DNA of 64,000 nucleotides from an uncultured Planctomycetaceae bacterium (GCA_964413535.1 CAYPTB010000058.1:1-64000); one strand, 5' to 3'. Counted from the first letter of the stretch, positions 3,474 through 44,091 are shown. Numbers and translations are program-made. Notes: generated from the sequence alone by a model not told the origin.

Positions 3474-4004
3474 GTGAAGCAATCCTCCGTCAGCGCCGAC
3501 ATGACCATGGAGCAGATCCTGGGCGAAATCCCCTCCGCGCAGCGGGCGCTGTTCCAGCGCTATCACATCGGGGGATGCTCGTCGTGCGGATTCCAGCCCA
3601 CCGACACGCTGGCGCGCGTCTGCAAGGACCACAACATCCTCGACGTGAACGAGGTCGTCTCCTTCCTCCAGGAGGCGCACGAGCTCGACCAGCGCATGCA
3701 GCTCGAACCGGCGCTGGTACAGAGCTGGATCGACGCCGGCGAGAAGTTCTCGTTCATCGACGTGCGCGGGGAGGAAGACCTCGCGGCGGGCGAGTTCGGG
3801 CCGGCCGAGCCGATGGACTACGACGATTCGGAGCGCTACATGGGCCTCCCGAAGGACCACAAGATCGTCTTCGCCTGCATGGACGGCGACCGGGCGCTCA
3901 ACGTCGCCGCCTACTTCCGCGGCCACGGCTTCACCGAGGTCTACTGCCTGCGCGGCGGCATCAACGCGTGGCGCGCGAAGTTCGGCACCCCCGTCCGCCG
4001 CTAG
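3474..4004 (+). CDS. DUF1858 (hybrid-cluster-protein-associated redox disulfide domain) fused to a rhodanese-like sulfurtransferase domain
   Basis: The N-terminus DMTMEQILGEIPSAQRALFQRYHIGGCSSCGF is the DUF1858 CxxC pattern. The C-terminus KIVFACMDGDRALNVAAYFRGHGFTEVYCLRGGINAW is a rhodanese fold with a catalytic Cys. The start is GTG at 3474; ATG at 3501 is an alternative. Confidence 0.7.
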   Translation: MKQSSVSADMTMEQILGEIPSAQRALFQRYHIGGCSSCGFQPTDTLARVCKDHNILDVNEVVSFLQEAHELDQRMQLEPALVQSWIDAGEKFSFIDVRGEEDLAAGEFGPAEPMDYDDSERYMGLPKDHKIVFACMDGDRALNVAAYFRGHGFTEVYCLRGGINAWRAKFGTPVRR

Positions 4005-4045
4005 CTTCGTCCGCAGCGGAGCCCGCGCCGTCCGACGCAGGGCCC

Positions 4046-4597
4046 GTGGACGTGGTCCGCGTCTTCAGCGCCGGGCACTCGAACCGGAGCCTCGCGGAGT
4101 TCCTCGACCTGCTGCAGCCGCGCGCGATCGAGCTCCTCGTCGACGGGCGGCGCTTCCCCGTCTCCCGCCGCCATCCGCACTTCGGGCGCGAGCGCCTCGA
4201 GCACAGCCTCGCGGCGCAGGGCATCGCGTACGCCCACGAGCCCGAGCTCGGCGGGCACCGCGCTCCCGATCCCGCCTCGCGCAACACCGCCTGGAGGAAC
4301 GCCGCCCTACGCGGCTACGCGGACCGCATCGGCGAGCCCGCCTTCCGGGCCGCTCTGGATCGGCTCGTCGAGCGCGCGCGGCGCGGACGCACCTGCGTCC
4401 TGTGCGCCGAGGCCGAGCCCGAGCATTGTCATCGCCGCATCCTGGCCGACGTGCTCGCGAGCCTGGGCTGCGAGGTCGTGCACCTCGTCCGGGCGGGCGA
4501 GGAGCGCGCGCACGCGCTGCACCGAGCCGCGCTCGTCCTCGCTCCGGGAACCGTCGTCTATCCGGCCGGCGGCGCCGCGCAGCGCGAGCTCTTCTGA
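4046..4597 (+). CDS. DUF488 family protein
   Basis: Motifs VRVFSAGHSNRSLAEFLDLLQPRAIELLVDGRRFPVSRRHPHF...AQGIAYAHEPELGGHR and CAEAEPEHCHRRILAD match DUF488. The start is GTG at 4046 or 4052 and is uncertain. It lies in frame inside the long track ORF 3296-4597, which reads through the rhodanese gene off-frame. Confidence 0.6.
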   Translation: MDVVRVFSAGHSNRSLAEFLDLLQPRAIELLVDGRRFPVSRRHPHFGRERLEHSLAAQGIAYAHEPELGGHRAPDPASRNTAWRNAALRGYADRIGEPAFRAALDRLVERARRGRTCVLCAEAEPEHCHRRILADVLASLGCEVVHLVRAGEERAHALHRAALVLAPGTVVYPAGGAAQRELF

Positions 4598-4912
4598 GCG
4601 CGGGGGCTTTTCCGATCAGATTTGTGTAAGGCGTGGTAGCGACGCGAGTCTGCGCGCGAGCTCGAGCGTCCGTCGCTCTGTGGGTGAACCCGTCCCCGGG
4701 CGTCGAGAGCGCCGGTTGCGCCCACGGTTGCGGGGAGTGCTCGCGCCGATTCGCGCGACGAACTGCGAAAACTCGTTGCATCGGAGTGCGGTGTCTCGGA
4801 CCTGAGACTGAAGCGCGGTGCGCTCGCGTCCGCACGCGATTGTCGACTGGAGGGACGCACCTAGAATCGCGCGCCAGCCTTCCGATTCGCACCGGAACAT
4901 CAAGGAGAAAAC

Positions 4913-5305
4913 ATGAAAGCACTCGGCACTTCGATCCTCGTCTCCATCGTCCTGCTCGTGACCGCGTGGAGCGGACTCGGTTCGACCGCGGTCGCCGCGG
5001 AGACCGCGCGCGGCGCCGGAACGGGCAACTTGAGCGTCGCCACCGTGAACGCTGCCGGCAAGCCCGTCGCGGGCGCGCTCGTGAACGTCTTCGCGTCGGG
5101 CGGCGGCGCCGTCGCGTCCGGGACGACGAACGCGAATGGCAAGATCGTCTTCTCCGGTCTCGCCGCGGGCAGCTACGGCATCTTCGCCTCCAAGACGATG
5201 GTCGTGTCCGGCTTCCCGATCGCGATCTACGGCAGCGCCAACGCTACCGTGAAGGCGAACAAGACGACCGGCGTGATCGTGGCGCTCGTCAACTCCGCGC
5301 CCTGA
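4913..5305 (+). CDS. Small secreted protein with a single carboxypeptidase-regulatory-like / Cna-B-like beta-sandwich domain
   Basis: A good SD (aaGGAGaaaacATG) precedes the ATG. The signal peptide is MKALGTSILVSIVLLVTAWSGLGSTAVAAE. The mature part GNLSVATVNAAGKPVAGALVNVFASGG...TNANGKIVFSGLAAGSYGIFASK fits the G.V.D..G.P..GA.V.......T...G.F....L..G.Y pattern. Confidence 0.75.
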   Translation: MKALGTSILVSIVLLVTAWSGLGSTAVAAETARGAGTGNLSVATVNAAGKPVAGALVNVFASGGGAVASGTTNANGKIVFSGLAAGSYGIFASKTMVVSGFPIAIYGSANATVKANKTTGVIVALVNSAP

Positions 5306-5435
5306 TCGGATCCGCGCTCCGTGCGATGCCGCGTCGCGCCATGCCCCGCGCGGCGCGGCGCGCACGGACTTCCGGCCGGCCGTTCGCCCCGAGGGTTGCG
5401 GAAACGGGCGCAACCGGAGATGACGGTTCCTTCCC

Positions 5436-7454
5436 ATGTCGCTCCCCTCCGAGATCCAAGAGCACCGCCGACGGCTCCTCGCGCTCGCCCGGCACCTCGT
5501 CTCCGATCTACACCGCGCCGAGGACCTCGTCCAGGACACCTATGTCTCGGCGCTCGAGCGCGGAGCCGCGGAGGAGCCCCTCGGTTGGGCGCGGTCGTGG
5601 CGGCGGATGCGCGAGACCCTGCGCCTCAAGGCGCGCGAAGCGTTCCGCCAGGAGGACCGGCGCAAGCGTCGCGAGCGCGCGGCCGCCGCGCGCGAGTGCG
5701 ACGAGTCGGGGGTGCCCGGCCGCGACGAGCCGACCTACCTCACGGCCATCGCCGAAGAGGTCGAGCGTCTGGAGGAACCGTATCGAACGACGCTCCGGCT
5801 GCGCTTCCTCGACGAGTGGCCGCCGCGCCGCATCGCGCGCGAGCTCGCCCTGCCGGTGCAGACGGTGTACTCGCGCATCGGTCGCGGTTCGGCGCTCCTG
5901 CGCGAGCGGCTCGAGCGCAGGTTGGGAGCGCTCGCGCCGCTCCTCTTGCTGGCGCGCGGCGCGCGAACGACGCCGCCACGTGCGCAGGGTGTTCGCCCGC
6001 CGCGCTTCGCCGTTGCCGCGGGCGCCGCGGTCGCTGCGGTCGCCGCCGGAACCGCGCTGTGGGTCGCCGCGGTCGATCCCGGCTCGCTCGATGGTGATCG
6101 AGCGGTCGCTGGGGCCTGGGACGTTGTCGCGCGGGCGCCCGATCTCGGGCCTGCCGCGCCGGTCCGGGTGCTCGCACCCATCGCCGTCGATCCGCTCGTC
6201 GCGCCGCCGCGAGCGGTGGACCCCGACCTGCAAGCGGGGCGCGTGGTCGACTCCACGGGTCGTCCCGTCGCGGGCGCGGAGGTGTCGTTCGAGCGCGGGA
6301 TCCTCGCGTTCCTGACGACTTCGGTGGAGCAGACCAGGTTCACCGCGCAGAGCGTGGAAGCTCGCACGACGAGCCGCGCCGACGGGAGTTTCGAGCTCGC
6401 GCTCTCGCGAACGGTGGAAGGCCGCGTGATCGCGCGGTCGTCCGGTCTCGCGCCGCTCGTGGCCGTGATGGTCCCCGTGCCGCTCGGCATCGAGTGCATC
6501 GAGCTCGTCGTGGCGCCGGCTGCTCGGCTCGGCGGCGTCGTGCTCGACCGAGAGCGCACCCCCGTGCGCGACGCCTACGTCGTCCTGCGCGCGCCCGCCG
6601 CGTTCCTGGCCGCGCTCGAGCACGAGGATCGCACTTGGCACGCGGGGGTCCACGCCGTGACGGACGCCGAGGGACGGTTCGCGCTCCAAGACGCTTGGGA
6701 TCTCCCCGGCTCGCGCGTCGAGCTCTACCGCTCCGACCTCACACGGCACCTCGTGCTCGCCGGCGGCGAACGCGAGCTAGAGCTCGTCGTCGAGGAACTG
6801 TGCGCCGACGGGGAGAGCCTGCGCGGCTACGTCGTGACACCCACGCTCGAGCCGATCGCCGGCGCGGGCGTGTTCGCGGGTCGCGAGAACCGCCGCTCGG
6901 CCGCGGACGGCTCGTTCGAGCTCCCGCTCGCCGCGCTCGAGGAACTCGATCGGATCTGGGCCGTCGCGCGCGGCTCGCTCCCGGTTGCGTACGACCTCCC
7001 GCGCCTCGCGAACGGGAGGCTCGACCTGCCGCCCGAGATCCTGGTCGAGATCGGCGAGCACGCGCTCGCGATCACGGGCACGGTGGTGGACTCCGACGGG
7101 CGCCCGATCCCGCGCGCGAGGGTCTGGTGCGCGGACCCGACGCCCTTCGCGCCCGACCTGACGGGAGGCGTGCTCGAGGTGTGGATCGCCGGCGAGAACG
7201 CGGGCGACCCCTACGTCGTGGCCGACGCCGGCGGCGCCTTCGTGCTGCCGCACCTCATGCGGCGCGCGTACCGAGTCGGCGCGCTCGAGCGCGCGACGTT
7301 GCGCTCGGTGGTGAGCGAGCCGATCGCCGCCGGCTCGCGGGACATCGTGCTGACGATCGCGACGGACGCCCCGCTCGAGCCCTTCGACGGCGTGGCGGTC
7401 GACGTCCACGGGGCGCCGCTCGCGGGCGTCACGCTCTCGCTCGAGCGCCCATGA
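5436..7454 (+). CDS. ECF-type sigma-70 factor fused, through one TM helix, to a long extracytoplasmic array of carboxypeptidase-regulatory-like repeats (a one-polypeptide sigma/sensor)
   Basis: Region 2 is DLVQDTYVSALER. Region 4 is EPYRTTLRLRFLDEWPPRRIARELALPVQTVYSRIGRGSALLRERL. The TM helix is FAVAAGAAVAAVAAGTALWVAAV. More than 400 aa follow with repeated GRVVDSTGRPVAGAEVSF...SRADGSFEL and GTVVDSDGRPIPRARVW-type units. The start is ATG at 5436. Confidence 0.75.
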   Translation: MSLPSEIQEHRRRLLALARHLVSDLHRAEDLVQDTYVSALERGAAEEPLGWARSWRRMRETLRLKAREAFRQEDRRKRRERAAAARECDESGVPGRDEPTYLTAIAEEVERLEEPYRTTLRLRFLDEWPPRRIARELALPVQTVYSRIGRGSALLRERLERRLGALAPLLLLARGARTTPPRAQGVRPPRFAVAAGAAVAAVAAGTALWVAAVDPGSLDGDRAVAGAWDVVARAPDLGPAAPVRVLAPIAVDPLVAPPRAVDPDLQAGRVVDSTGRPVAGAEVSFERGILAFLTTSVEQTRFTAQSVEARTTSRADGSFELALSRTVEGRVIARSSGLAPLVAVMVPVPLGIECIELVVAPAARLGGVVLDRERTPVRDAYVVLRAPAAFLAALEHEDRTWHAGVHAVTDAEGRFALQDAWDLPGSRVELYRSDLTRHLVLAGGERELELVVEELCADGESLRGYVVTPTLEPIAGAGVFAGRENRRSAADGSFELPLAALEELDRIWAVARGSLPVAYDLPRLANGRLDLPPEILVEIGEHALAITGTVVDSDGRPIPRARVWCADPTPFAPDLTGGVLEVWIAGENAGDPYVVADAGGAFVLPHLMRRAYRVGALERATLRSVVSEPIAAGSRDIVLTIATDAPLEPFDGVAVDVHGAPLAGVTLSLERP

Positions 7455-7954
7455 GCCTGATCGAGTCGACGGAGGGCGGGCGCGCGCACCAGTTCGCCAT
7501 GCCGGGCGCCGTGGTCGTTACGGACGCCCTCGGACGCTTCGCCTTCGCGGCGGCGCCCGAGGATGGGTGCCTGCTGCGCGTCGGCGGCAAAGGCGTCTTC
7601 GACGGCGCCGCGCCGCTGCCCCGTGCGCGTCGCGGCGCGACCGTCGTCGTGCCGCGCGTTGCGCGCTTGCACGTGCGGGCGCACGGGCTCGGAGGCAATC
7701 GCCTCGACGTCCGTCTCCTCGACGCGAACGGCGAAGCGCTCGTCCTGCATCCCGCCGCCGACATGGACCTTTCGATCATGCTCCAGCCGCGTCGCTTCCT
7801 GTCGCTCGCGGACGGAACTTGCGAACTGCGGGTGCCCGACACGGGACGCACGCTCGTGCTCGAGAGCGAAGGCGTGGAGCTCGTCCGTCGCGCCGTGGAG
7901 CCCGTAGCCGGAGCGGTGGTCGTGGTCGGCTCGCGCCCGGAGCGAGCTCAGTAG
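7451..7954 (+). CDS. Carboxypeptidase-regulatory-like domain protein (167 aa). Its ATGA start overlaps the stop of the sigma fusion. Either a separate coupled gene or a frameshifted C-terminal extension.
   Basis: ATG at 7451 overlaps TGA at 7452-7454. The protein MSLIESTEGGRAHQFAMPGAVVVTDALGRFAFAAAPEDGCLLRVGGKG... repeats the upstream repeat pattern. Confidence 0.5.
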   Translation: MSLIESTEGGRAHQFAMPGAVVVTDALGRFAFAAAPEDGCLLRVGGKGVFDGAAPLPRARRGATVVVPRVARLHVRAHGLGGNRLDVRLLDANGEALVLHPAADMDLSIMLQPRRFLSLADGTCELRVPDTGRTLVLESEGVELVRRAVEPVAGAVVVVGSRPERAQ

Positions 7955-8460
7955 CCGTCGTCGGTGTAGTGGCTCGTACTGCCGTCGATCGACAGCCGGC
8001 CGGTTTCGGCCTCGACGTGCACGATGCGCTGGTCGCCCTGGAACTCGAGCGTGATGCGCGCGCCGGTCTTCGGCACGCCGCGCGTGTCGTACAGCAGGGT
8101 TTCGCCTTCCCCGAGCGCCACGTCGGTGATTCGTACGCCGCGGAAGACGGCATCGCGGTCGTAGGAGCGGCGGAGCTCCGTCGCCTCGCCGAGCTCGTAG
8201 ATCCCGTCGTCGATGCGGTAGCCGTCACCGGCCTCGTCGAACTGCACTTGCACGTCCCGGCTGATGTAGGCGGCGCGGTTCTGCGCCGCGCGCAGGTCCT
8301 TCGCGAGCAGGATCGCGGCCTTCTCGAGCGTGACCTCCGCGCGCTCGAAGAACGACGGAACGGCGAGCGACGCCACGGCCGCGATCAACACGAGCGCCAC
8401 GACCAGATCGGTGAGCGTGAAGCCTCCGCGGACGCTCTCTTGTTTGCCGATTCGGATCAC
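7948..8460 (-). CDS. Type II secretion / type IV pilus minor pseudopilin-like protein (GspH-like)
   Basis: Prepilin-type N-terminus with a cleavage/methylation motif RGG|FTLTDLVVALVLIAAVASLAVP. It has D rather than the usual E at +5 and a beta-rich C-terminal domain. The start is GTG (cac at 8458-8460). Confidence 0.65.
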   Translation of the reverse strand: MIRIGKQESVRGGFTLTDLVVALVLIAAVASLAVPSFFERAEVTLEKAAILLAKDLRAAQNRAAYISRDVQVQFDEAGDGYRIDDGIYELGEATELRRSYDRDAVFRGVRITDVALGEGETLLYDTRGVPKTGARITLEFQGDQRIVHVEAETGRLSIDGSTSHYTDDGY

Positions 8461-8861
8461 GGGCCTCTGCGGAGTCCTTCGGGCCGTGCGAGCCCAGAGA
8501 TCCTAGCCTGCATCCCTCTCCAGCCGCCGGCTGCAACGCCGCAATTCCCGGCATCGGCTGCGTTGGGCTGGGTCGCCCGCCTGGCATCTACCAGCACTTG
8601 CGACGTTTCATTCGCCATCTGGTGAGAGAGGCAGGGAGGGATACGCGGGTTGCGGCCGGGAACGGCGTGTCGCGTTTCGCCGTCGGGCTGGCCGTCGGCA
8701 ACCCGCGCGAGGCCGCCGCGATCCCTCCGGCGCCGAGTGCTGGCCCGGGGTCCTTTCGGTTTCTCTGCTCGGCGCTCTTGAGATCGAGGCGGCCGGCGGC
8801 CGGAAAGCCCTTCGCCTGGGACGAAGGTCCGAAGACCCAGGCATCCCGGAGGCGAAGCGGC

Positions 8862-10526
8862 CTACTCTTCGGCGTCCGCCGTTCCCGCTTCGCCCTTCGA
8901 GCTCTTCGAGCCCTTGCGTTCCGGGGGTTGCGCGGCGGCGCCGTCGCGCGCGGAGGCCTTCTCGTCCACCAGCTTCGCGAAGTACTCGGGCATCTCGACG
9001 CCGCCCACGTCCTTCATGATCTGCATCATGGGCGGGAGCGCGGCGCCGAGGCCGCGCAGGAATCCGGCCGCGCCGCCGCCGGCCGCCCCGTTCCCGCCGT
9101 CCCACACGACCACCTTGTCGAACTTCACGTTCGAGATGGCCTTCGCCGCCGTCTCCGACAGCTTGTCGAGGTGCTCGAGCATGAGCATCTGGAACGCGGC
9201 CTGAGCGCCGCCGCAAGCGTCGACGATGGCCTGCAGACCGAGACCCTTCTTCGCCAGGATCTCGTACTGACCGCGCGCCTCGGCTTCGAGCATGGCGTAG
9301 ATCGCCGACGCCTCGCCCTCGGCCTCGATGCGCCGTTTCTGCGCGGAGGCTTCCGCGTCGACGATCGTCTGCGCCTTCTCGGCCCGTGCGACCGACTCGA
9401 GCTCGGCGCGCTTCTCGGCCTCGAGCTTCTTCCCTTGCGCTTCGGCGGCCTTGGCCTGCGCCAGGTACTGCGCCTCGAGGACCGCGGCCTCCGCGACGCG
9501 CTTCTGGGTCTCGCCCGTCTTGTAGGCATCCGCCTCGCGCACCTTGAGCTCGGCGACCGAGGTCGCGATGGCCGCCTTCGACTCGTTCTCGCCGCTCACG
9601 GCGCGCGCGTCGGCGCTGGCGACCGCGATGCGCATCTCGCGCTCCGCCTCGCGGACCTGCGCTTCGCGCTGCAGGTCGGCCGCGCGCTCGCCTACTTGGC
9701 GCTCCTTCTCGAGGTCGGCGATCTTCACCGCGCGGTCCCGGGCTGCTTCGGTCGTGCCGATGTCGCGCGTCTTCTCCGCGTTCGCGACCTGGATGGCGCG
9801 CTCGCGCTGGGCGGCCGCCACGCCGATGGCGCCGAGCTTCTCCTGCTCGGCCACGTCGATCAAGGCCTGCTGGATGGCCTCCGACGCCGCCCGCCGTCCG
9901 ATCGCCTCGATGTAGCCGGACTGATCCGTGATGTCCTTGATGTTCACGTTGATCAGCACGAGGCCGATCTTCTTGAGCTCGGGCTCGAGCGAGGCCTGGA
10001 TGCTCGTGAGGAACACGTCCCGGTCGCGGTTGATCTCCTCGATCCGCATCGAGGCGATCACCTGGCGCAGTTGGCCGAAGATGATGTCCTCCGCCTGTTT
10101 GGTCACTTCCACCGCCGAGAGCCCTAGCAAGCGCTGTGCGGCGTTGGTCATCGAGGCGTCGTCCGTTCCGATCGCCACCGTGAAGACGCTCGGCACGGCG
10201 ACGCGGATGTTCTCGATCGAGAGCGCTCCCTCGAGCGGGATGTCGATCTGCATCGGGTCCAGCGAGAGGTACTCGTAATCCTCGAGGACCGGCCACACCA
10301 AGGCGCCGCCGCCGTGCAACGTGCGCGCGACGCGACCCTGCTTCGAGCGCCCGTAGATCACGAGGATGCGGTTGCTCGGGCAGCGCTTGTAGCGCCTCGC
10401 AAAGGCGATGAAGACGCTGAAGACGATGAGCGCGACCGCCAGAACGGCCAGGGTCAAGGGGATGTTCGACGCGTCGTTCGCGCCGCCGAAGAATCCCTCC
10501 TGTAGGAATGCCAACGTTCGATTCAT
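8862..10526 (-). CDS. Flotillin / SPFH (band 7) domain protein, YqiK/FloA-like
   Basis: N-terminal TM, SPFH domain, then a long Ala/Glu-rich coiled-coil (EAQ/ERA repeats) typical of flotillins. The track ORF starts at GTG 10535. The ATG at 10524-10526 sits 8 nt after an AGGAGG sequence and is the more likely start. Confidence 0.85.
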   Translation of the reverse strand: MNRTLAFLQEGFFGGANDASNIPLTLAVLAVALIVFSVFIAFARRYKRCPSNRILVIYGRSKQGRVARTLHGGGALVWPVLEDYEYLSLDPMQIDIPLEGALSIENIRVAVPSVFTVAIGTDDASMTNAAQRLLGLSAVEVTKQAEDIIFGQLRQVIASMRIEEINRDRDVFLTSIQASLEPELKKIGLVLINVNIKDITDQSGYIEAIGRRAASEAIQQALIDVAEQEKLGAIGVAAAQRERAIQVANAEKTRDIGTTEAARDRAVKIADLEKERQVGERAADLQREAQVREAEREMRIAVASADARAVSGENESKAAIATSVAELKVREADAYKTGETQKRVAEAAVLEAQYLAQAKAAEAQGKKLEAEKRAELESVARAEKAQTIVDAEASAQKRRIEAEGEASAIYAMLEAEARGQYEILAKKGLGLQAIVDACGGAQAAFQMLMLEHLDKLSETAAKAISNVKFDKVVVWDGGNGAAGGGAAGFLRGLGAALPPMMQIMKDVGGVEMPEYFAKLVDEKASARDGAAAQPPERKGSKSSKGEAGTADAEE

Positions 10527-10538
10527 GCTCTCCACCTC

Positions 10539-11141
10539 CTACAGCCCTTCGACCAGGAACGTGTCTTCGGTCTTCATCTCGACGATCCGGCAATCGCTGC
10601 CGGAGGGCAGCGTCTCACCCGTGGTCACCGCGTCGAACTCGACGCTCCGGCCCTGCATCATCACCGTGATCTTGCCCTTGCCCGCCAGGGCGCCGGGGAT
10701 GCGCAAGTAGACGCGCGCCGTCTTGCCGAGCGCCTGCTTGGGCTCGAGGTTGCCCTGCGACTGGAGCCGCTGGAAGACGAGCATCATGTAAGCGACCAGG
10801 AACATGACCGACGAGCCCGCGGCGAAGGCCGCGAGGGCGCTGAGTCCGCTGCCCCAGCCGGCTTCCGTCCCGTACCACCCGACCAGGCCGAAGAGCGTCA
10901 GGAAGCTCGACATCGTGCGGATCGAGAGGAAGTTCGCCGATCCGTCCCCGGCGTCGAGGTCATCCGCGTCGACGTCGGCATCGATATCGGTGTCGCCGCC
11001 GATCCCGAAGAGGTTCAGGCCCGCCTGTCCGAGCAGCACCGTTCCGCCTGCCACCGCGCAGCCGATGTATACCTTGACGATCGTCCACTCGGAGAAGTGG
11101 TCCTTGAACCAGTTCAGAGCGTTCTGGAGGAAGCCATCCAT
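10539..11141 (-). CDS. NfeD-like / YqiJ-like membrane protein (flotillin partner)
   Basis: MDGFLQNALNWFKDHF, TM segments, an Asp-rich loop and a C-terminal OB-like beta domain (KITVMMQGRSVEFDAVTTGETLPSGSDCRIVEMKTEDTFLV). The SD ggaaGGAGGggaacgacgATG places the start at 11141. The track ORF starts 42 codons further upstream. Confidence 0.7.
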   Translation of the reverse strand: MDGFLQNALNWFKDHFSEWTIVKVYIGCAVAGGTVLLGQAGLNLFGIGGDTDIDADVDADDLDAGDGSANFLSIRTMSSFLTLFGLVGWYGTEAGWGSGLSALAAFAAGSSVMFLVAYMMLVFQRLQSQGNLEPKQALGKTARVYLRIPGALAGKGKITVMMQGRSVEFDAVTTGETLPSGSDCRIVEMKTEDTFLVEGL

Positions 11142-11217
11142 CGTCGTTCCCCTCCTTCCGTCCGACGGGCGCCGCCGCGCCGAATCGCGCCGGCGCATTC
11201 TAACGGGATGGAAGCGC

Positions 11218-12111
11218 TCAGAAGATCCAAGTGAGCGAGGCGCCGAACACCGCGGCGACCTCGACACCGTCGTCGACGAGCTCCTCTCCGTCCGCGTCGA
11301 TCTCCAGGTTGCGGTCGGCCAGGCCTCCGAACAACTCGATGTCGAGACCCCTCGCGTGCCAAACGAGCCCGGCGAGTCCGCTGATCTCGGAGTCCACGAC
11401 GGCGGCGTCCCGCAGCGTATTCTGGTCCTTCAAACGGAACTGCCGCTCGTCGAGCCGCAGGCTGGCGTAGAGGTCCAAACGCTCGTTGGCGCGGTAGCTG
11501 GCGAGCAAGCCTGGATCGGCGGAAGCGATCACCGAGAAGCGCAGGTCGTCGGTGACGCGCCAATCCACGAGCGGCAAGGGGAAGAACTCGTCGTCCTCTT
11601 CGAGCCGCGTGCGTCCCGCGATCCCGAGGCCGAGCTCGAGCTTCTCGCTCGCGCGGAACAGGACGCCGAAAGCTCCTTCGCCGTACAGGCTTCCCGAGAG
11701 ACTCACGTCGTCCGCTCTCCCGGACACGAGCGACAGGTCGAAGAACCAGCGCCGCTCGTCGCTCCCGGATGTGTAAGTGCCTCGGAGCGTGTCGTCCTTC
11801 GCGTCGTCGAAGGGGTCGGGGATGAACAGCATGGCGCCCGACCCGAAGTCGTACTTCGACTCCTCGTGCCGGTACGAGACCTCGGCGAACCCGCCCTCAT
11901 CGTCCCCGGGCCAGGTGCGCGCCAGCGTGCCTCCCCAACGCGTGATCTTGAGCTGGCCGCCGTCATCGAAGTCGGCCTCGGTGTACGCTCGACCGTCGAC
12001 GCGGAGCGACCAATCCGGTTCGTCCCGGTCGCCGAAGAGATCCTGTGCGAAAGCAGGGGATGCGAGGACGGAGAGGGCGAGGGCCGAAGCCGCGTGCGTG
12101 TGGAGCTTCAT
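11218..12111 (-). CDS. Outer-membrane beta-barrel protein (predicted), first gene of the OMP-NfeD-flotillin operon
   Basis: Signal peptide MKLHTHAASALALSVLASPAFAQ, alternating amphipathic beta strands and a C-terminal LTWIF aromatic terminus. The start is ATG at 12111. Confidence 0.6.
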   Translation of the reverse strand: MKLHTHAASALALSVLASPAFAQDLFGDRDEPDWSLRVDGRAYTEADFDDGGQLKITRWGGTLARTWPGDDEGGFAEVSYRHEESKYDFGSGAMLFIPDPFDDAKDDTLRGTYTSGSDERRWFFDLSLVSGRADDVSLSGSLYGEGAFGVLFRASEKLELGLGIAGRTRLEEDDEFFPLPLVDWRVTDDLRFSVIASADPGLLASYRANERLDLYASLRLDERQFRLKDQNTLRDAAVVDSEISGLAGLVWHARGLDIELFGGLADRNLEIDADGEELVDDGVEVAAVFGASLTWIF

Positions 12112-14593: not shown

Positions 14594-16789
14594 TCAGAGC
14601 CGGCGGCCCTGGGCGGCGAGGATCGGCGCGAGGCCGGCGACGAGCTGGTCGACGTCCTCGGGTGCGAGCGCTTGGTCCTTGTCGCACAAGGCCTCGCACG
14701 GGCGCGGGTGACACTCGACGATCAAGCCGTCGGCGCCCACGGCGGCCGCCGCGAGCGCGAGCGGCACGACGAGGCTGCGTACGCCCGCGGCGTGCGACGG
14801 ATCGACGACGACCGGCAGGTGCGTGCGCGACTTCAGGACCGGCACGGCCGACAGGTCGAGCGTGTTGCGCGTCGACGTCTCGAACGTGCGGATGCCGCGC
14901 TCGCACAGGACGACTTGGTGGTTGCCGCCGGCCAGGATGTACTCGGCGGCCTGCAAGAGCTCGTCGAGCGTCGCGCTCATACCGCGCTTCAGCAGCACCG
15001 GGCGGCGGATCTTTCCGAGCTCCTTCAGGAGCGCGGAGTTCTGCATGTTCCGCGCGCCGACCTGGATCATGTCGGCCCGCAGGGCGACCTTCGCCACGTC
15101 CTCGGGGCGCAGCACTTCGGTCACGACGGGCAGCTCGTAGCGCGCACCGGCTTCCACGAGCAGCTCGACGCCCTCGAAGCCGAGTCCCTGGAACGCGTAG
15201 GGCGAGCTGCGCGGCTTGAACGCCCCGCCGCGCAGGAGATGCGCGCCGCGTGCCTTGACCATCGCGGCCGCGTCGTGGATCTGGTCGCGGCTCTCGATCG
15301 CGCACGGACCGAGGATCAGCGTGAAGCGCTCGGTCCCGATCGGAACCCCGCCGACGCGCACGACCGAGCGCGCGCCGTCCGCCGCCAGCGCGTGCAAGGG
15401 CGACGTGCTCCGCGGAGACTTGGGCGTCGGAGCAGCGGAAATCGCAGAGCTCGTGGCGCTGGTCGCAGCCGGTTCCGGCTCGCGCGGGTTCGACTCCGGT
15501 GCTTGCGCCGTGTGCGGCGCGGAGGAGGTCTCTTGCGTGAGCACTGCCTGCGCTCCACGGGTGACGGGTGCGCGGGGTAGCTCGATCGGCTTCGCCTCCA
15601 GTGCGCGCGAGGGATAGCTCCCGAGCACGCGCAGGTGATTCGTGAAACGCCGCAGCTCGCCGAGCGCCGCCGCGATGTTCGCCTCCTCCGCGTAACCCTC
15701 GAGATCGGCCAGGAACATGTACTCCCACGGCGTCTCCGGCTCGGCGCGGCTCTCGAGGCGCGTGAGGTTGATGCCGCGCTCGGCCAGGACGCGCAGGCAC
15801 GCCGCGAGCGCGCCGCTCTTGTCCTTCAGCGTGAACGTGAAGGTCGTCTTGCCCGGCCAGCGCGTGTCGGCCGGCTCGGAGTGCTTGGCCACGAGCAGGA
15901 ACCGCGTCTGGTTGTGGGAGCTGTCGGCGACGCCCTCGCGCAGCACGACCAGCCCGTGGCGCTCGGCCGCCTCCACGGGCGCGATCGCGGCGACGAGCGG
16001 ATCGCCGTTCTCGCGGACGGAGCGCGCTGCGCCGGCCGTGTCGAAGTGCTCCACGGCGCGCACGTGCGGCAGCGAGGCGAAGAGCCGCTGGCACTGGCCC
16101 AGCGCGACGGGATGCGAGCGCACTTCGCGCAACGCCTCGATGCGGGCGCCGCGCAAACCCACGAGGCAGTGCTCGACGCGCCAGATCTCCTCGTCCACGA
16201 CGGCGAGGTCGCGCGTCACGAGGAGCTGGTTCACCTCGCCGATGCTGCCCGTGACCGAGTTCTCGACCGGCACGAGCGCGTAGTCGAGCTCTTCCTCCTC
16301 GAGCGCGCTCACGAGCAACGCGAAGCTCGCGTAGCCGCGCCGCTCGAGCGCGTGGCCGCGCGCGGCGAAGAGCTTCGAGAGCGCGAGGTCGCTGTAGCAC
16401 GCCGGGGCTCCCTGGTAGCCGACGCGGACGACCCGCGCGCCGTGCGCGAGCGGCGCGCGTTCCTGGCTGCGGCGCGAGTAGTTGAGGATCTCGCGCAGGA
16501 TCCGTCCGGTGAAGTACTCCGAGAGCCCGTGGCTGCGAGCCTCTTCCACCCAGACGCGCAGGACCTCGCGCTCGCGCCCCTCGTCCCGCAGCGGAAGGCT
16601 CGCGTCGGCCTGCTTGAGCTCCCCGACCGCCCGGACGGCCTCCATGCGCGCCTTCAGGAGCCGGACGAGCTCCCGGTCCACGCGGTCGATCGTCCCGCGC
16701 GCATCGCAGAGCTCGCGAGCGGCACCCTCGGCGTGCTGCCCGGCGAGCCCCTCGTCGTCGAAGCCGTTCTGGAATTCGTGCTGCTTCAT
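14594..16789 (-). CDS. Trifunctional chorismate mutase / prephenate dehydratase (with ACT domain) fused to a class I-beta 3-deoxy-7-phosphoheptulonate (DAHP) synthase
   Basis: Residues 1-100 are an AroQ chorismate mutase. Residues 110-380 are the PDT plus ACT domains (TTFTFTLKDKSGALAACLRVLAERGINLTRLESR). A 70-aa Ser/Pro/Ala linker follows. Residues 470-731 are a KDO8PS-like DAHPS (LILGPCAIES, KPRSSPYAFQG, VVDPSHAAG). The start is ATG at 16789. Confidence 0.85.
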   Translation of the reverse strand: MKQHEFQNGFDDEGLAGQHAEGAARELCDARGTIDRVDRELVRLLKARMEAVRAVGELKQADASLPLRDEGREREVLRVWVEEARSHGLSEYFTGRILREILNYSRRSQERAPLAHGARVVRVGYQGAPACYSDLALSKLFAARGHALERRGYASFALLVSALEEEELDYALVPVENSVTGSIGEVNQLLVTRDLAVVDEEIWRVEHCLVGLRGARIEALREVRSHPVALGQCQRLFASLPHVRAVEHFDTAGAARSVRENGDPLVAAIAPVEAAERHGLVVLREGVADSSHNQTRFLLVAKHSEPADTRWPGKTTFTFTLKDKSGALAACLRVLAERGINLTRLESRAEPETPWEYMFLADLEGYAEEANIAAALGELRRFTNHLRVLGSYPSRALEAKPIELPRAPVTRGAQAVLTQETSSAPHTAQAPESNPREPEPAATSATSSAISAAPTPKSPRSTSPLHALAADGARSVVRVGGVPIGTERFTLILGPCAIESRDQIHDAAAMVKARGAHLLRGGAFKPRSSPYAFQGLGFEGVELLVEAGARYELPVVTEVLRPEDVAKVALRADMIQVGARNMQNSALLKELGKIRRPVLLKRGMSATLDELLQAAEYILAGGNHQVVLCERGIRTFETSTRNTLDLSAVPVLKSRTHLPVVVDPSHAAGVRSLVVPLALAAAAVGADGLIVECHPRPCEALCDKDQALAPEDVDQLVAGLAPILAAQGRRL

Positions 16790-16982: not shown

Positions 16983-18815
16983 TTACAGCTCGTCGAGCGT
17001 CGCCACGCGGCCCTCGTTGGCTTCCTCGAGCCATGCCATGAGCGGCTCGAAGTAGCGCAGCATCGGCTTCGCCGACAGGTCGCTGCCGGTCTTCGCGCGC
17101 AGGAGCTCGCGCCAGTCGACCGTCATGCCGGGCGCGAGGATCGAGTGCAGGAACTCGCCCACGTCCTTGCGGCCGTAGTAGTTCGTGTCGCGCGGATCCT
17201 CGTGCAGGATCTTGGTCGCGATGTGGTCGTGGAGCTGGAAGAGCAGCACGTAGGAGAGTGCGTAGTCGTAGTAGCCCGCCGGATCGTCGTTGACGTGCGT
17301 CTTCGTCGCGGCGTCGCAGAACTTCTCGCCGCGCGGCTCGGGCGGGGCGATGCCCTGGTACTTCGCGACGAGCTCCCACCAGCGCGCGTTCCAGCGCTCG
17401 CTCGGGAGCTCGTCCGCGTAGAGCTCCTTCTCGAAGTGGAACATCGTGCCCGTGGACCACGGGATGAACACCACGTAGTTCAGCGCCGACTGGAGCAGGA
17501 GCTGCATCGGGTCGGACTTCGGCCCATCCTCCGCCGCACCGAGCCCCACGGCCGCGGCGAAGCGCGGCTGCATGGCGGCGAGTCCCATGAGCGAGCCGAT
17601 GCCCTCGTGGTAGGCGCGGTTCGCGCCCTCGCGCAAGAGCAGCGGCACGCCCGGCCGCGAGTAGGAGAGGTAGTAGTAGATGTGCCCGAGCTCGTGGTGC
17701 GTCGTCTCGTACCACTCCGTGTCGGGCACGACGCTCATCAGCGAGCGCACGTCGCGCTCGAAGTCCATGTGCCAGGCCGAGGCGTGCGTGTTCTTCTTGT
17801 AGTCGGCGCCCGCGGGCAACGGATAGAGCGACGACTTCTCCCAGAAGACGGGCGGCAGCGGCTCGAAGCCGAGGCTCACGTAGAAGCGCTCGGCTTGCTT
17901 CACGAGCCACTCGGCGCCCTTGGCCTCGAGCGCCGGGTCCAGGTCGAAGCCGGGCACGTCCACGAGCGCGCTCCAGTCCTGGCCCCAGCGATTGGGGAGC
18001 CAGTGGGCGGGGATCAGGTCCGGCACGGGCTCTCCGTAGCGCTGCGCGAGCTCGTGGCGTGCATAGGTGTGCAGCTCGCGGAAGAGCGGGCGCAGCTCGC
18101 GGTTGAGCCCGTCGATCTGCGCGGCGAGCTCGGCCGTCGTCATGCCGTACTCGCTCGCCATGTAGGAGAAGAAGTCGGGATAGCCGAGCGCGCGCACGCA
18201 TTCGTTGCGCAGGCGCTGCAAATCGACGAGGCCCGCGCGCAGCCCCACGCCGACCTGCTTCGAGGCTTCCCACACCGCGCGGCGTTGCGCGGGGTCCGTC
18301 TCCTCGCGCAGCGCCGCGTCGATCGCGTTGGGGGTGATCTCCGCGTCCCCGAGCGTGAAGGTGAAGCCGTACAGCTTCTCGGTCTGCTCCGTCTCGGCCG
18401 CGATGCGCGCCTTCACGACTTCCGGCACGGTCTGCGGGTTGTCGCCCGCCAGGAACAGGACGCGCTCGAGCTGGCGCGCCTCGAGGTCCGTGAGCTCCTC
18501 CTTCGCCGCGAGGAAGCCGCGCGCCGCCTCGATGTTCGCGACGCTGCCGGTGAACTCGGCCAGCGCTTCGTCGGCGGCCTGCGTGCGCTCGGCGTTGGTC
18601 GTGTCGCCCTCGACGATGTGCGTGTTCGACGCCCACTGCGCTTCGCCCGAAGCGGTCGCGAGCTCCTGGTACGTCTCGCTGTACGCCTCGAGGAACTCCC
18701 CAACGTCGCGCGGCGAGTCGCTCGCCGCGCGGGAGCCGAGCGCCGTGCACCCGAGGGGGAGCGCGGCGAGGACGAGGGCGAGCAGGGACGACGGGATCAG
18801 CTCGATGGGGCGCAT
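16983..18815 (-). CDS. M2 family metallopeptidase (angiotensin-converting-enzyme-like peptidyl-dipeptidase), secreted or lipoprotein
   Basis: The signal/lipobox is ALPLGC. HHELGHIYYY is the HEXXH zinc motif in M2-like context, with a downstream EGANRAYHEG. The length of 610 aa fits bacterial ACE homologs. Confidence 0.8.
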   Translation of the reverse strand: MRPIELIPSSLLALVLAALPLGCTALGSRAASDSPRDVGEFLEAYSETYQELATASGEAQWASNTHIVEGDTTNAERTQAADEALAEFTGSVANIEAARGFLAAKEELTDLEARQLERVLFLAGDNPQTVPEVVKARIAAETEQTEKLYGFTFTLGDAEITPNAIDAALREETDPAQRRAVWEASKQVGVGLRAGLVDLQRLRNECVRALGYPDFFSYMASEYGMTTAELAAQIDGLNRELRPLFRELHTYARHELAQRYGEPVPDLIPAHWLPNRWGQDWSALVDVPGFDLDPALEAKGAEWLVKQAERFYVSLGFEPLPPVFWEKSSLYPLPAGADYKKNTHASAWHMDFERDVRSLMSVVPDTEWYETTHHELGHIYYYLSYSRPGVPLLLREGANRAYHEGIGSLMGLAAMQPRFAAAVGLGAAEDGPKSDPMQLLLQSALNYVVFIPWSTGTMFHFEKELYADELPSERWNARWWELVAKYQGIAPPEPRGEKFCDAATKTHVNDDPAGYYDYALSYVLLFQLHDHIATKILHEDPRDTNYYGRKDVGEFLHSILAPGMTVDWRELLRAKTGSDLSAKPMLRYFEPLMAWLEEANEGRVATLDEL

Positions 18816-34170: not shown

Positions 34171-34292
34171 GATGGAGGACCTCTCTCCCCGAGAGCGTCA
34201 GGCCGTATCGAGCGGGGCCAGATCCGCGCGAGCGTTTTTTCGTGGCCCGTCGCGCGCACGACCTGCGCTCTTCTCCCGGAACTCCGTCCACG

Positions 34293-34805
34293 ATGCCGAG
34301 CGATCCTGATTGGAGCCCCGCCGTCTACCGCGAGTTGCGGCGTCTGGCGGAAGGCATGCTGGCCGCCGAACGCAACGGCCACACGCTCGAGCCGACAGCG
34401 CTCGCGCACGAGGTCTGGCTGCGGCTCCGCTCGAGCCGCAACGCGAGCGAGCTCGACGGGGGCGAGCTCGTGGGCCTCGCGGCCCAGGCGATGCGCCGGA
34501 TCCTGGTGGAGCACGCGCGAGCGCGCGGCGCGCGCAAGCGCGGCGGCGATGCGCGCCGCACGACGCTGGACGGCAAGGCGCTGGCGGCGGAGCCCGAGGA
34601 CTTCGTGCTCGAGCTGGACGAAGCCCTGACGGCGCTCCAGGGGATCGATCCCGAGCTCGCGCGCGTGGTCGAGTTGCGCTTCCACGCCGGCCTCTCGGTC
34701 GAGGAGGTGGCCGCGACGCTCGAAACCTCGGCGCGCACGGTCAAGCGCCGCTGGCGCTTCGCGCGCGCCTGGCTGCAGCAACGAATCGGAGAAGCGACGC
34801 CATGA
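34293..34805 (+). CDS. ECF-type sigma factor of the STK-associated family (TIGR02999 / ECF43-like)
   Basis: Region 2 is HTLEPTALAHEVWLRL. Region 4 is ELRFHAGLSVEEVAATLETSARTVKRRWRFARAWL. Its stop overlaps the start of the kinase gene (ATGA). The start is ATG at 34293. Confidence 0.75.
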   Translation: MPSDPDWSPAVYRELRRLAEGMLAAERNGHTLEPTALAHEVWLRLRSSRNASELDGGELVGLAAQAMRRILVEHARARGARKRGGDARRTTLDGKALAAEPEDFVLELDEALTALQGIDPELARVVELRFHAGLSVEEVAATLETSARTVKRRWRFARAWLQQRIGEATP

Positions 34806-40100: not shown

Positions 40101-40240
40101 TCCTCCCTCACATGCCGGCTCGACGCGCACCGGGCGCGCGCAGCGCGGGCATCTCGTCGCGCCCCGTCACGCGGCCCGCGAGGTCCGTCGAGCCGCGCAC
40201 CGGGTCTGCTAGGCTCTCACGCGACACGGGCGAGCAGCGG

Positions 40241-43200: not shown

Positions 43201-43465
43201 CCTCAACCTCACCGCAGCCGACTACGTGTTCCTGCTCGACCCGTGGTGGAACCCCGCCGTCGAAGCCCAAGCCGTCGATCGCGCCCACCGCATCGGCCGC
43301 ACGCGTCCCGTCGTCGCCTATCGCCTGATCGCGAAGGCCACGGTGGAGGAGAAAGTCCTCGACCTGCAAGCACAGAAACGCGAGCTCGTGAAGACCCTCC
43401 TGGGCGACGGTCGCGCCGTGCTGAAGGACCTCACCCGCGAGGACCTCGAGCGTCTGTTGTCGTGA
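40241..43465 (+). CDS. SNF2-family helicase with an N-terminal SWIM zinc finger (YwqA-like bacterial Snf2)
   Basis: The SWIM motif is [20 protein letters not shown]. The SNF2_N region has [12 protein letters not shown] and [13 protein letters not shown] (a DESH-like box). The HELICc region has [69 protein letters not shown]-like. The start is ATG at 40241 ([10 protein letters not shown]). Confidence 0.85.
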   Translation: [1074 protein letters not shown]

Positions 43466-43875: not shown

Positions 43876-44091
43876 GTATTCCGTCCCTCTTCGCGAAGGA
43901 AGTCGTGCTCGAGATCTTCGGCGCGCCCGGGGCACGCAGAAGTGCTCGAACGCATGGTCGAGGTGTTGACGCACCTCGACGCGAAGAGCAGGTAGCGGAT
44001 CGCGGCGAGCGGTCTCGGCGCACGCGGGCACATGGATTGCGGATCGGATCGCCGGGGCGCGTCGGACACCTTCCGAAGAAAACCCTGGACG

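Follow-up and report, generated by a model that had tools for sequence, protein, structure and literature searches.

C-terminal extensions that contain transmembrane (TM) segments have already been described on ECF sigma factors (PMC7826278, PMC8999054, PMC7671368), and such extensions represent the least understood mode of sigma control. ECF57 is an ECF group of the Planctomycetes with a TM-containing C-terminal extension (Jogler 2012; Casas-Pastor 2021), for which activation by "release from the membrane" has been proposed (bioRxiv 10.1101/2019.12.11.873521, supplement file 4). In the actinobacterial groups ECF52, ECF53 and ECF48, for instance SCO4117, the extension was proposed to be a fused anti-sigma factor that is removed by proteolysis (PMC8999054). 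IutY from Pseudomonas putida, a sigma/anti-sigma hybrid of ECF243, has been shown experimentally to be activated proteolytically via Prc and RseP (PMC8999054, PMC5411451); it is the only TM-extension ECF to have been dissected in this way, and it retains an anti-sigma domain. Planctomycetal ECFs with large C-terminal extensions, many Pfam domains and widely varying size were also described by Pinto et al. 2020 (PMC7671368). The gene examined here lies in a stretch of DNA of 64,000 nucleotides (the window), and it is a new, probably damaged member of this already described kind of sigma fusion. The first-pass annotation had presented a one-polypeptide ECF–TM fusion as something unusual, a novelty that was overstated since ECF57, ECF52/53/48 and IutY precede it (PMC7826278, PMC8999054, PMC7671368).

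Like ECF57, the window fusion combines an ECF core with a long TM-bearing C-terminal extension and lacks a separate anti-sigma factor, and its homologs bear a planctomycetal source name. However, ECF57 has a fully conserved Cys pair, in sigma2 and sigma4, whereas Cys reaches at most 0.05 per sigma column among 114 members of the present family, and the one Cys of the window protein is found in the sigma2–sigma4 linker; ECF57 averages about 2 TM helices compared with one here, and in its extensions WD40 or homeodomain-like domains take the place of a CarboxypepD_reg array. IutY is likewise a single polypeptide that starts with an ECF sigma, spans the membrane with one TM segment and ends in a periplasmic part, but it places a FecR-type anti-sigma domain before the membrane, while in the present family a linker with a median of 36 aa (range 5–68, 114 members) and no anti-sigma or FecR domain joins sigma4 to the TM segment; no Pfam domain of either type was found in the window protein. 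In addition, IutY signals through a TonB-dependent receptor, whereas the periplasmic part here is a beta-sandwich stalk. ECF52/53/48 are similar in having an ECF sigma with a C-terminal extension, theirs reaching about 400 aa and having 1–2 TM helices, and ECF52 also has an ectodomain, an extracytoplasmic carbohydrate-binding domain; they differ from the present family in phylum, in ectodomain types and in a zinc-finger (ZAS-like) element, the motif of which (HxxxCxxC) occurs in 0 of 114 family members. The lengths of the family (803–1591 aa) fit the description of Pinto et al. 2020, who ascribe the diversity of extensions to unrelated sequence captured repeatedly from downstream; in contrast, the extension here is conserved and colinear over many 50%-identity clusters and is thus an old and stable architecture. 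With some 36 residues between the sigma part and the membrane, and no anti-sigma module, the family offers a useful test of whether tethering and proteolysis are sufficient for control.

The sigma–stalk family is large and uncharacterised and is found mainly in metagenome-assembled genomes of Planctomycetota, and public records name it just "sigma-70 family". A search for homologous fusions, which had been advised at first pass, found the same architecture in at least 114 cluster representatives (50% identity), none of which is as short as 672 aa. All 43 matches of the first search have both sigma and CarboxypepD_reg domains; the family N-terminal sigma domain is present in 72 of 139 new representatives (50% identity), and these 72 are 829–1591 aa long. 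Members were counted by re-scoring, with a sigma-domain profile, the sequences from a search of 1.84 billion representatives; the totals of that search are not a measure of the family because giant CarboxypepD_reg repeat proteins dominate them. A contig scan with the 672-aa protein was uninformative on the family, as the generic ECF peptide EDLVQDTY drew ordinary ECFs from many phyla. No separate anti-sigma gene adjoins any of the six loci compared.

A probable one-base frameshift in the sigma-fusion gene

As shown in Table 1, the three ORFs called earlier, of 130, 672 and 167 aa, are all present, with a GC3 of 0.86–0.90 in their frames, and the ATGA overlap of the last two was confirmed at 7451–7454. 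The region 5436–7954 (+) is probably a single gene with a 1-base deletion at 7446–7450; its intact product would be a membrane-anchored ECF sigma factor of 839 aa. At the syntenic ortholog locus, L002, one unbroken ORF encodes an 826-aa protein, P0002, which aligns to the 672-aa ORF through its final residue and continues from residue 1 of the 167-aa ORF onward. The junction DNA is CGG CCC ATG CAG (R P M Q) in L002 compared with CGC CC- ATG AGC in the window, where 1 base is missing. When one C is inserted at this point, an 839-aa ORF is obtained (...LERPMSLIE...), which aligns colinearly and end to end with 14 homologs. It had been suggested that the 167-aa ORF may be a frameshifted C-terminal continuation, and the colinearity of P0002 over the junction, the missing base and the position of the cut within a beta-sandwich bear this out. 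As written, the DNA would yield a truncated 672-aa protein, and the 167-aa remainder is unlikely to be functional because it lacks an export signal and begins mid-domain.

Table 1. Features of the sigma-fusion locus and its upstream gene, in window coordinates.
Feature	Position	Strand	Basis or remark
Sigma-70-like promoter of the 130-aa protein, TTGTCG-16 nt-TAGAAT	4840-4867	+	45 nt before ATG
Shine-Dalgarno sequence AAGGAG	4902-4907	+	5 nt 5' of the ATG of the 130-aa protein
A130, 130-aa secreted single-domain CarboxypepD_reg protein (predicted)	4913-5305	+	Pfam, signal-like N-terminus
21-bp GC-rich hairpin just 3' of the A130 stop	5318-5368	+	candidate U-less terminator or 3' stabiliser
672-aa ORF	5436-7454	+	present as first annotated
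Sigma region 2, residues 4-90	5445-5705	+	Pfam, AF2, PDB matches
Sigma region 4, residues 100-163	5733-5924	+	Pfam, AF2, family consensus
Short post-sigma4 helix, residues 167-175, ALAPLLLLA	5934-5960	+	AF2; family motif W-x-x-A-L-x-P-L
Single TM helix, residues 191-211	6006-6068	+	KD19, AF2, Hessa scale
Four complete CarboxypepD_reg / transthyretin-like beta-sandwiches: D1 265-346, D2 355-451, D3 461-540, D4 544-640	6228-7355	+	Pfam, AF2, Foldseek
Domain 5 (D5), split by the frameshift	7383-7630	+	first strands in 672-aa frame, remainder in 167-aa frame
Frameshift site CGC CCA TGA	7446-7454	+	overlaps ATG at 7451
167-aa ORF, displaced C-terminus	7451-7954	+	rest of D5 and beta-sandwich D6
D6 cap domain, residues 69-159 of 167-aa ORF	7655-7927	+

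The 167-aa part is 43% identical to P0002 (residues 657–808), compared with 44% for the rest of the fusion, and since it is thus as ortholog-like and has kept its coding GC3, the damage would be recent or unexpressed. The same lack of extra decay downstream also suits another explanation, namely that sequencing or consensus calling introduced the frameshift by error and that the cell has an intact gene and the full 839-aa protein; one base mends the frame, and the source is a metagenome-assembled genome. We consider such an error somewhat unlikely. A Logan assembly (SRR10083321) contains the same 5572 bp with 0 mismatches, frameshift included, although this agreement is weak and not independent evidence if the same reads underlie both assemblies. 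The site is a 3-base C run with no long homopolymer. A metagenome scan gave no match to an unshifted allele. With a genuine deletion in a single gene as the preferred reading, 5436–7954 is to be entered in annotation as one (pseudo)gene and not as two proteins; because it is frameshifted, the window copy is a poor experimental subject, and P0002, the intact ortholog, or the sequence after repair is better suited to study.

Membrane anchor and possible mode of activation

The first-pass annotation placed one hydrophobic helix between the sigma part and the repeats, and such a helix is present here; a TM-like segment likewise follows sigma4 in each of the 15 aligned homologs and in 70 of the 72 new relatives. 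In the window protein, hydrophobicity peaks at residues 192–210 (KD19 = 1.91), AF2 gives the helix disorder on both sides, and the Hessa sum of +1.6 kcal/mol is marginal, values elsewhere in the protein being at least +5.7. The 15-aa flanks of the helix have a K+R count of 4 N-terminally and 1 C-terminally, which favours an N-in orientation, while the family-wide means of 1.44 and 1.58 (114 members) do not settle the topology; an N-in/C-out arrangement of the sigma fusion is predicted. Between sigma4 and the membrane, the motif W-x-x-A-L-x-P-L lies about 5 aa past sigma4 in 76 of 114 members versus 23 of 570 control windows.

The full protein would thus run from a cytoplasmic sigma2–sigma4 unit through the short conserved hydrophobic helix and one TM helix to a disordered Pro/Ala-rich linker, followed by an extracytoplasmic stalk in which five CarboxypepD_reg-type beta-sandwiches are capped by a sixth beta-sandwich. 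The anchor would retain the sigma domain at the membrane, and the stalk may sense an envelope or surface cue, upon which sigma2–sigma4 would be freed by proteolysis, as suggested by analogy with IutY and with the proposals for ECF52 and ECF57. No site-1/site-2 protease (M50 or S41) was found among about 20 genes scanned in the 64-kb window, and no protease conserved in the family neighbourhoods was seen; in one homolog, a Peptidase_S49 gene lies directly downstream. Neither a target promoter nor an autoregulatory ECF-type promoter was identified, and comparison of the sequences 5' of the sigma genes in the window and L002 revealed no evident common motif.

It is also conceivable, though unlikely, that the sigma factor acts while membrane-bound, as ToxR and CadC do, and recruits RNAP to promoters near the membrane, or that the anchor merely localises it. 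This would agree with the neighbourhoods that lack a conserved protease, with the short cytoplasmic linker and with the fact that the protein has no anti-sigma domain needing destruction. However, a sigma factor must accompany the RNAP core during promoter search, the characterised TM sigma fusions are all cleavage-activated (IutY; proposed for SCO4117; PMC8999054), the Peptidase_S49 gene adjoins one homolog, and the TM helix has the high Ala and Gly content expected of intramembrane protease substrates.

Sigma domain, stalk and C-terminal cap

An ECF sigma domain complete within the first 160 aa had been recognised from the sequence, and in the 672-aa product both sigma HMMs score over their Pfam cutoffs: Sigma70_r2 at residues 7–55 (28.6 bits, cutoff 24) and Sigma70_r4_2 at residues 104–152 (33.9 bits, cutoff 25.7). 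The layout is that of ECF (group 4) factors, with r2 and r4 about 45 aa apart and without regions 1.1 and 3. AF2 models three helices in sigma2 (4–21, 25–43 and 51–90; pLDDT about 90), and sigma4 (pLDDT 92–97) fits the family consensus LxEPYRxTxLLRYF...TVRTRLxRGL. PDB sequence matches for residues 8–160 are the ECF sigma factors SigW (5wuq), SigL (6dv9) and SigE, and Foldseek matches of the sigma part are ECF sigma factors within RNAP complexes. The r2 match spans just profile positions 2–56 of 71, fuller coverage being seen elsewhere in the family, for example in P0004. Against the NCBIfam ECF superfamily model TIGR02937 the protein scores 36.6 bits, under the cutoff of 42.9, because region 2.3/2.4 is divergent: it reads SWRRMRETLRL in the window and RRRLREILRT in P0002, off the family consensus WLAxVxRN (for family and ECFs together, WLxxVxRN). 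Since this divergent segment is conserved in both orthologs, it speaks for selection and against decay.

These features raise the question of whether, in this clade, the sigma-like domain has degenerated into a mimic (cf. PhyR) that binds proteins rather than initiating transcription. Such a role would explain the loss of the family and ECF consensus in region 2.3/2.4 together with the partial r2 coverage and the missed TIGR02937 cutoff, but it appears highly improbable, as regions 2.1/2.2 (AEDLVQDTY) and the entire sigma4 are canonical and over Pfam thresholds, and the top structural matches are genuine sigma factors within RNAP complexes. The domain also scores 177.5 bits on the family profile against a family median of 166, a value that is inflated because the profile alignment includes the window sequence.

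The AF2 model of the 672-aa product (mean pLDDT 79.6) comprises the sigma helices, the TM helix and four full beta-sandwiches, after which the chain stops one or two strands into a fifth. The repeated transthyretin-like units reported after the helix correspond to four complete CarboxypepD_reg-type domains and the start of a fifth; PF13620 matches three stretches (68.8 bits in total, cutoff 32.3), the strands of D1–D4 have pLDDT values mostly of 80–97, and Foldseek relates this part to the tandem beta-sandwich stalks of pilins and adhesins (TIE 6fwv, SdrD, SpaA). In P0002, the best CarboxypepD_reg stretch (634–710) covers the junction-equivalent 656/657, and the repaired window fragment gives a sub-threshold match of 16.4 bits over the junction. 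The 167-aa protein was described as being of the same repeat type, which holds for about two-thirds of one domain; alone it reaches 12.9 bits, and its remainder is a non-Pfam beta-sandwich. Its AF2 model has a pLDDT of 81, and because a fold search of the C-terminal model against the PDB gave no match better than E 0.039, no function can be assigned to the cap domain.

A profile of the C-terminal region matched 31 proteins, in each case at the very C-terminal end, and an N-terminal sigma domain is present in 30 of these; homology and profile searches found no stand-alone homolog of the 167-aa ORF, the homology search yielding hardly anything other than the ORF itself. The description of this ORF as a split partner is consequently not upheld, its sequence type being known from no place other than the very C-terminal end of sigma fusions. 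A deliberate division into two ORFs, or their joining through programmed -1 frameshifting at C_CCA_UGA, is barely credible: the ATGA overlap permits translational coupling, and a -1 P-site slip at the stop, in which tRNA-Pro moves from CCA to CCC with ATG as the following codon, would yield an ortholog-like ...R-P-M..., but there is no X XXY YYZ heptamer, which leaves only a P-site slip, no SD-like stimulator lies upstream, the downstream structure is not unusual (z -0.21, +0.22), the ortholog is in frame and unshifted, and the 167-aa product would start mid-domain, without a signal peptide and without any stand-alone counterpart.

The upstream gene for a 130-aa protein

The 130-aa protein encoded upstream, A130, had been described as a strongly expressed-looking secreted protein with one domain of the repeat type, and this description agrees with its PF13620 match (35.1 bits, cutoff 32.3), its signal-peptide-like N-terminus (KD 1.94, ...TAVA/AE), its AAGGAG and its promoter match. 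The latter is the sole sigma-70-like match in 4500–8600 (4.1 kb), with 0.0 expected from shuffles. TTGnnn-N16-CCTAGAATC is conserved in the window, in L002 and in a further locus with an A130 ortholog, L087, with TAGAAT exactly at -51 from the ATG in all three, and the Shine-Dalgarno sequences of the orthologs are AAGGAG in L087 and CAGGAGG in L002. An ECF-type promoter for A130 was considered and rejected, as the conserved promoter is housekeeping-like. Judging from these sequence features, A130 is probably a separate unit for a small secreted beta-sandwich protein with strong constitutive expression.

A130 is 67% identical to its L002 ortholog, while the sigma fusions of the two loci share 44%. 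Just two more homologs were found in 5.8 billion clusters. Conservation is confined to a narrow lineage, and A130 is missing beside more distant family members. Origin as a recent duplicate of a stalk domain was rejected, the best similarity to the fusion protein being E 0.06 over 14 residues. A functional link between A130 and the sigma fusion is possible. One joint reading would make the family a distinct anti-sigma-less class, in which the post-sigma4 helix and the tether are the entire off switch, the cap reads a surface cue and, in this lineage, the abundant A130 is a ligand or decoy of the stalk; taken as a whole this is quite unlikely, and the addition that -1 slippage at C_CCA_UGA regulates the proportions of truncated and full-length sensor is still less likely.

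A simple terminator scan gave nothing after A130, because the hairpin in this position has no T-run. RNA folding of the intergenic region gives this hairpin as the main element, and hairpins of other sequence occur at the same position in L002 and, with a z of -3.65, in L087.

Gene model of the sigma fusion

The three ORFs described in the first-pass annotation are present at 4913–5305 (130 aa, A130), 5436–7454 (672 aa) and 7451–7954 (167 aa, C167), the last two sharing an ATGA overlap, and all three have a codon-position GC pattern typical of coding sequence in this genome of ~70% GC. C167 had been suggested to be a frameshifted C-terminal continuation, and it proved to be the displaced C-terminus of the sigma fusion, as indicated by the alignment with P0002 (the intact 826-aa ortholog), a one-base difference at the junction and the repaired frame. 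The 672-aa ORF is 44% identical to P0002, its closest relative, and aligns through its last residue (…VRP / …ERP); the next residue of P0002, M657, pairs with residue 1 of C167, with 43% identity over 155 residues. At the syntenic locus L002, which encodes P0002 and has the order rhodanese, DUF488, small CarboxypepD_reg gene, sigma fusion and convergent GspH-like gene, the fusion is a single unbroken ORF, and the junction reads CGG CCC ATG CAG, compared with CGC CC- ATG AGC in the window, where one base is missing. Adding one C yields an 839-aa frame (672 + 167) that is colinear with 14 homologs in the alignment; relatives in the family are 803–1591 aa long, the exception being one 536-aa match on a short contig.

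The frameshift interrupts a domain: the AlphaFold2 model of the 672-aa product stops one or two strands into the fifth beta-sandwich, the best CarboxypepD_reg stretch of P0002 (634–710) covers the junction-equivalent position, and in the repaired window fragment a CarboxypepD_reg match below the threshold crosses the junction. A profile of the C-terminal region matched 31 proteins, each at the extreme C-terminus, and 30 of them carry an N-terminal sigma domain; the sole stand-alone match was the window's own ORF. Searched against 5.8 billion clusters, C167 matched only itself. Judged from these sequence comparisons, the corrected gene model at 5436–7954 is one frameshift-damaged gene copy.

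The competing junction readings within 7430–7470 are CGCCCATGA (deletion) and CGNCCCATGA (full-length). A real deletion is favored over an assembly error because the Logan assembly of SRR10083321 is identical to the window and the C run at the frameshift site is only 3 bases long, although this agreement is weak evidence if the same reads underlie both assemblies. The part downstream of the junction has not diverged from the ortholog more than the upstream part; therefore, the lesion is recent, or an error, or bypassed. Programmed frameshifting, in which both ORFs would be translated as one product, is unsupported, since the junction has no slippery heptamer, the folds downstream of it match the shuffled average (z −0.21 and +0.22) and the ortholog has an unshifted frame.

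Domain anatomy and topology

The claim of a complete ECF sigma domain holds, with Sigma70_r2 (7–55) and Sigma70_r4_2 (104–152) above the Pfam gathering thresholds in the 672-aa product, and residues 8–160 align with SigW, SigL and SigE, ECF sigma factors of known structure. Pfam also finds CarboxypepD_reg in three stretches. The single hydrophobic helix noted earlier corresponds to segment 192–210 (KD 1.91), which AlphaFold2 models as an isolated helix amid disordered stretches. The stalk is similar to the tandem arrays of prealbumin/Ig-like domains in pilins and adhesins.

Anatomy of the sigma fusion (residues of the window protein)
Feature	Residues	Remark
Sigma2	4–90	
Sigma4	100–163	
Post-sigma4 helix	167–175	
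TM helix	191–211	
Linker	212–264	disordered, Pro/Ala-rich
D1–D4	265–640	beta-sandwiches
D5		broken by the frameshift
D6		beta-sandwich; no Pfam family, no significant PDB match

The TM helix of the window copy is marginal on the Hessa scale (+1.6 kcal/mol, compared with a family median of +0.57) and is by far the most hydrophobic stretch of its protein. The K+R counts of its flanks (4 vs 1) favor N-in, and across the family the flanks give no topology signal. An N-in/C-out topology is inferred because a sigma domain has to lie in the cytoplasm and beta-sandwich arrays of this kind are typically extracytoplasmic.

The family and its possible mode of action

Sigma r2/r4 and CarboxypepD_reg occur together in all 43 matches of the first search; the handful of matches with names bear Planctomycetota MAG labels. 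When 1.84 billion representatives were searched with a profile, giant repeat proteins predominated; among the 139 new representatives listed, 72 have the N-terminal sigma domain of the family, and in 70 of these 72 a TM-like segment lies no more than 110 residues beyond sigma4. The matches listed reach E ~1e-190, so the family exceeds these counts, which are to be read as "at least". Across 114 members, a linker with a median length of 36 residues joins sigma4 to the TM segment, the HxxxCxxC zinc motif occurs in none, and no sigma column exceeds 5% Cys. The motif W-x-x-A-L-x-P-L follows sigma4 by ~5 residues in 76 of the 114 (23 of 570 control windows), and the window copy retains ALAPL, modelled as the post-sigma4 helix.

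Conservation of the gene neighborhood is limited to the closest ortholog, and no separate anti-sigma gene was found in the neighborhoods examined. [quoted passage not shown] The protein's own anchor would keep the sigma domain at the membrane, the stalk, probably through its conserved distal cap, would sense an envelope or surface cue, and proteolytic cleavage within or close to the Ala/Gly-rich TM helix would free sigma2–sigma4. It has been reported that IutY is cleaved by Prc and RseP (PMC8999054), and the proteolytic or membrane-release proposals for ECF52/53/48 and ECF57 serve as further precedents (PMC8999054; bioRxiv 10.1101/2019.12.11.873521). At one of six loci (L085), a 605-aa double Peptidase_S49 (SppA-like) gene (8650–10467, +) lies 45 nt directly 3' of the family member P0019; in the ECF classification, S49 peptidases adjoin ECF52s6 and are proposed as releasing proteases.

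The main rival to release by proteolysis is that the sigma factor acts while tethered. A minor one, that the sigma domain is a sigma mimic, draws on the divergent region 2.3/2.4 of the window copy and its ortholog, but sigma4 and regions 2.1/2.2 are canonical. This region (window 5580–5640, residues ~49–68) is SWRRMRETLRLKAREAF in the window and RRRLREILRTKARGE in the ortholog, both departing alike from the family/ECF consensus WLAxVxRNxxxxxxR; because the two orthologs agree, the −10-recognition segment seems to have changed in a clade-specific way, not to have decayed.

C-terminal extensions that contain TM segments are already described in ECF sigma factors, and planctomycetal ECFs in particular are noted for large, varied extensions (PMC7826278, PMC7671368, PMC8999054). 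By its described features the nearest group is ECF57, which shares the phylum, an extension and the lack of an anti-sigma factor; its defining Cys pair is missing in the present family. Unlike this family, IutY and ECF52/53/48 have an anti-sigma or zinc-finger module. The family may represent a new ECF group. Of most use here are the corrected gene model and the recognition of an abundant family without an anti-sigma domain, which merits one experimental study.

A130 and other genes

A130, described earlier as an upstream secreted single-domain protein, scores above the threshold for CarboxypepD_reg, and its N-terminus resembles a signal peptide. It is better conserved toward its L002 ortholog (67% identity) than the sigma fusion is (44%), and two further homologs were found. 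Three elements recur in the window, L002 and L087 (a further A130-homolog locus): TTGnnn-N16-CCTAGAATC, with the TAGAAT positioned exactly 51 nt ahead of the ATG; a strong Shine-Dalgarno sequence; and, just 3' of the stop codon, a hairpin that is GC-rich but differs in sequence between the loci. "Strongly expressed-looking" is a fair description, and A130 looks like a self-contained, probably well-expressed unit driven by a housekeeping promoter. Its origin as a recent stalk-domain copy was ruled out (best similarity E 0.06). It is not present beside more distant family members; in one relative it is apparently followed by a convergent gene, an uncertain call on a 951-bp contig. A role for A130 as a partner of the sigma fusion is conceivable but unsupported.

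Between its rhodanese and DUF488 genes, L002 has an additional 436-aa gene without a Pfam match (1173–2483, +), which the window lacks (4004–4052; gap 47 nt). The gene for a 170-aa protein (7948–8460, −) converges on the sigma fusion, overlaps its 3' end by 7 nt and has a counterpart in the corresponding position of L002 (54% identity). The protein carries a methylation motif of the prepilin type at its N-terminus and weakly resembles GspH/ComGD (29.6 bits for TIGR01708, under the cutoff). A 557-aa SPFH/Band_7 (flotillin-like) protein with a long Ala/Glu-rich coiled C-terminal half is encoded at 8862–10535 (−); just upstream of it, in the same direction, a 242-aa membrane protein without a Pfam match (10539–11267, −) is possibly an NfeD-like partner. 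Further genes encode a 731-aa four-domain aromatic-amino-acid pathway fusion (chorismate mutase, prephenate dehydratase, ACT and DAHP synthase; 14594–16789, −) and a 610-aa bacterial angiotensin-converting enzyme homolog (Peptidase_M2, E 1e-95, nearly full profile; 16983–18815, −). Besides the fusion, the window encodes an ordinary ECF sigma factor of the planctomycete type (Sigma70_ECF, PF07638, E 2.5e-48; 34242–34805, +) and a 923-aa Ser/Thr protein kinase that does not adjoin it (46762–49533, +), both in keeping with a Planctomycetota origin. A 1117-aa SNF2-family helicase (40112–43465, +) is followed by a 403-aa bacterial archaeo-eukaryotic release-factor-like protein (baeRF_family3, E 4e-49; 44032–45243, +), a pair that might form a conflict or ribosome-rescue module.
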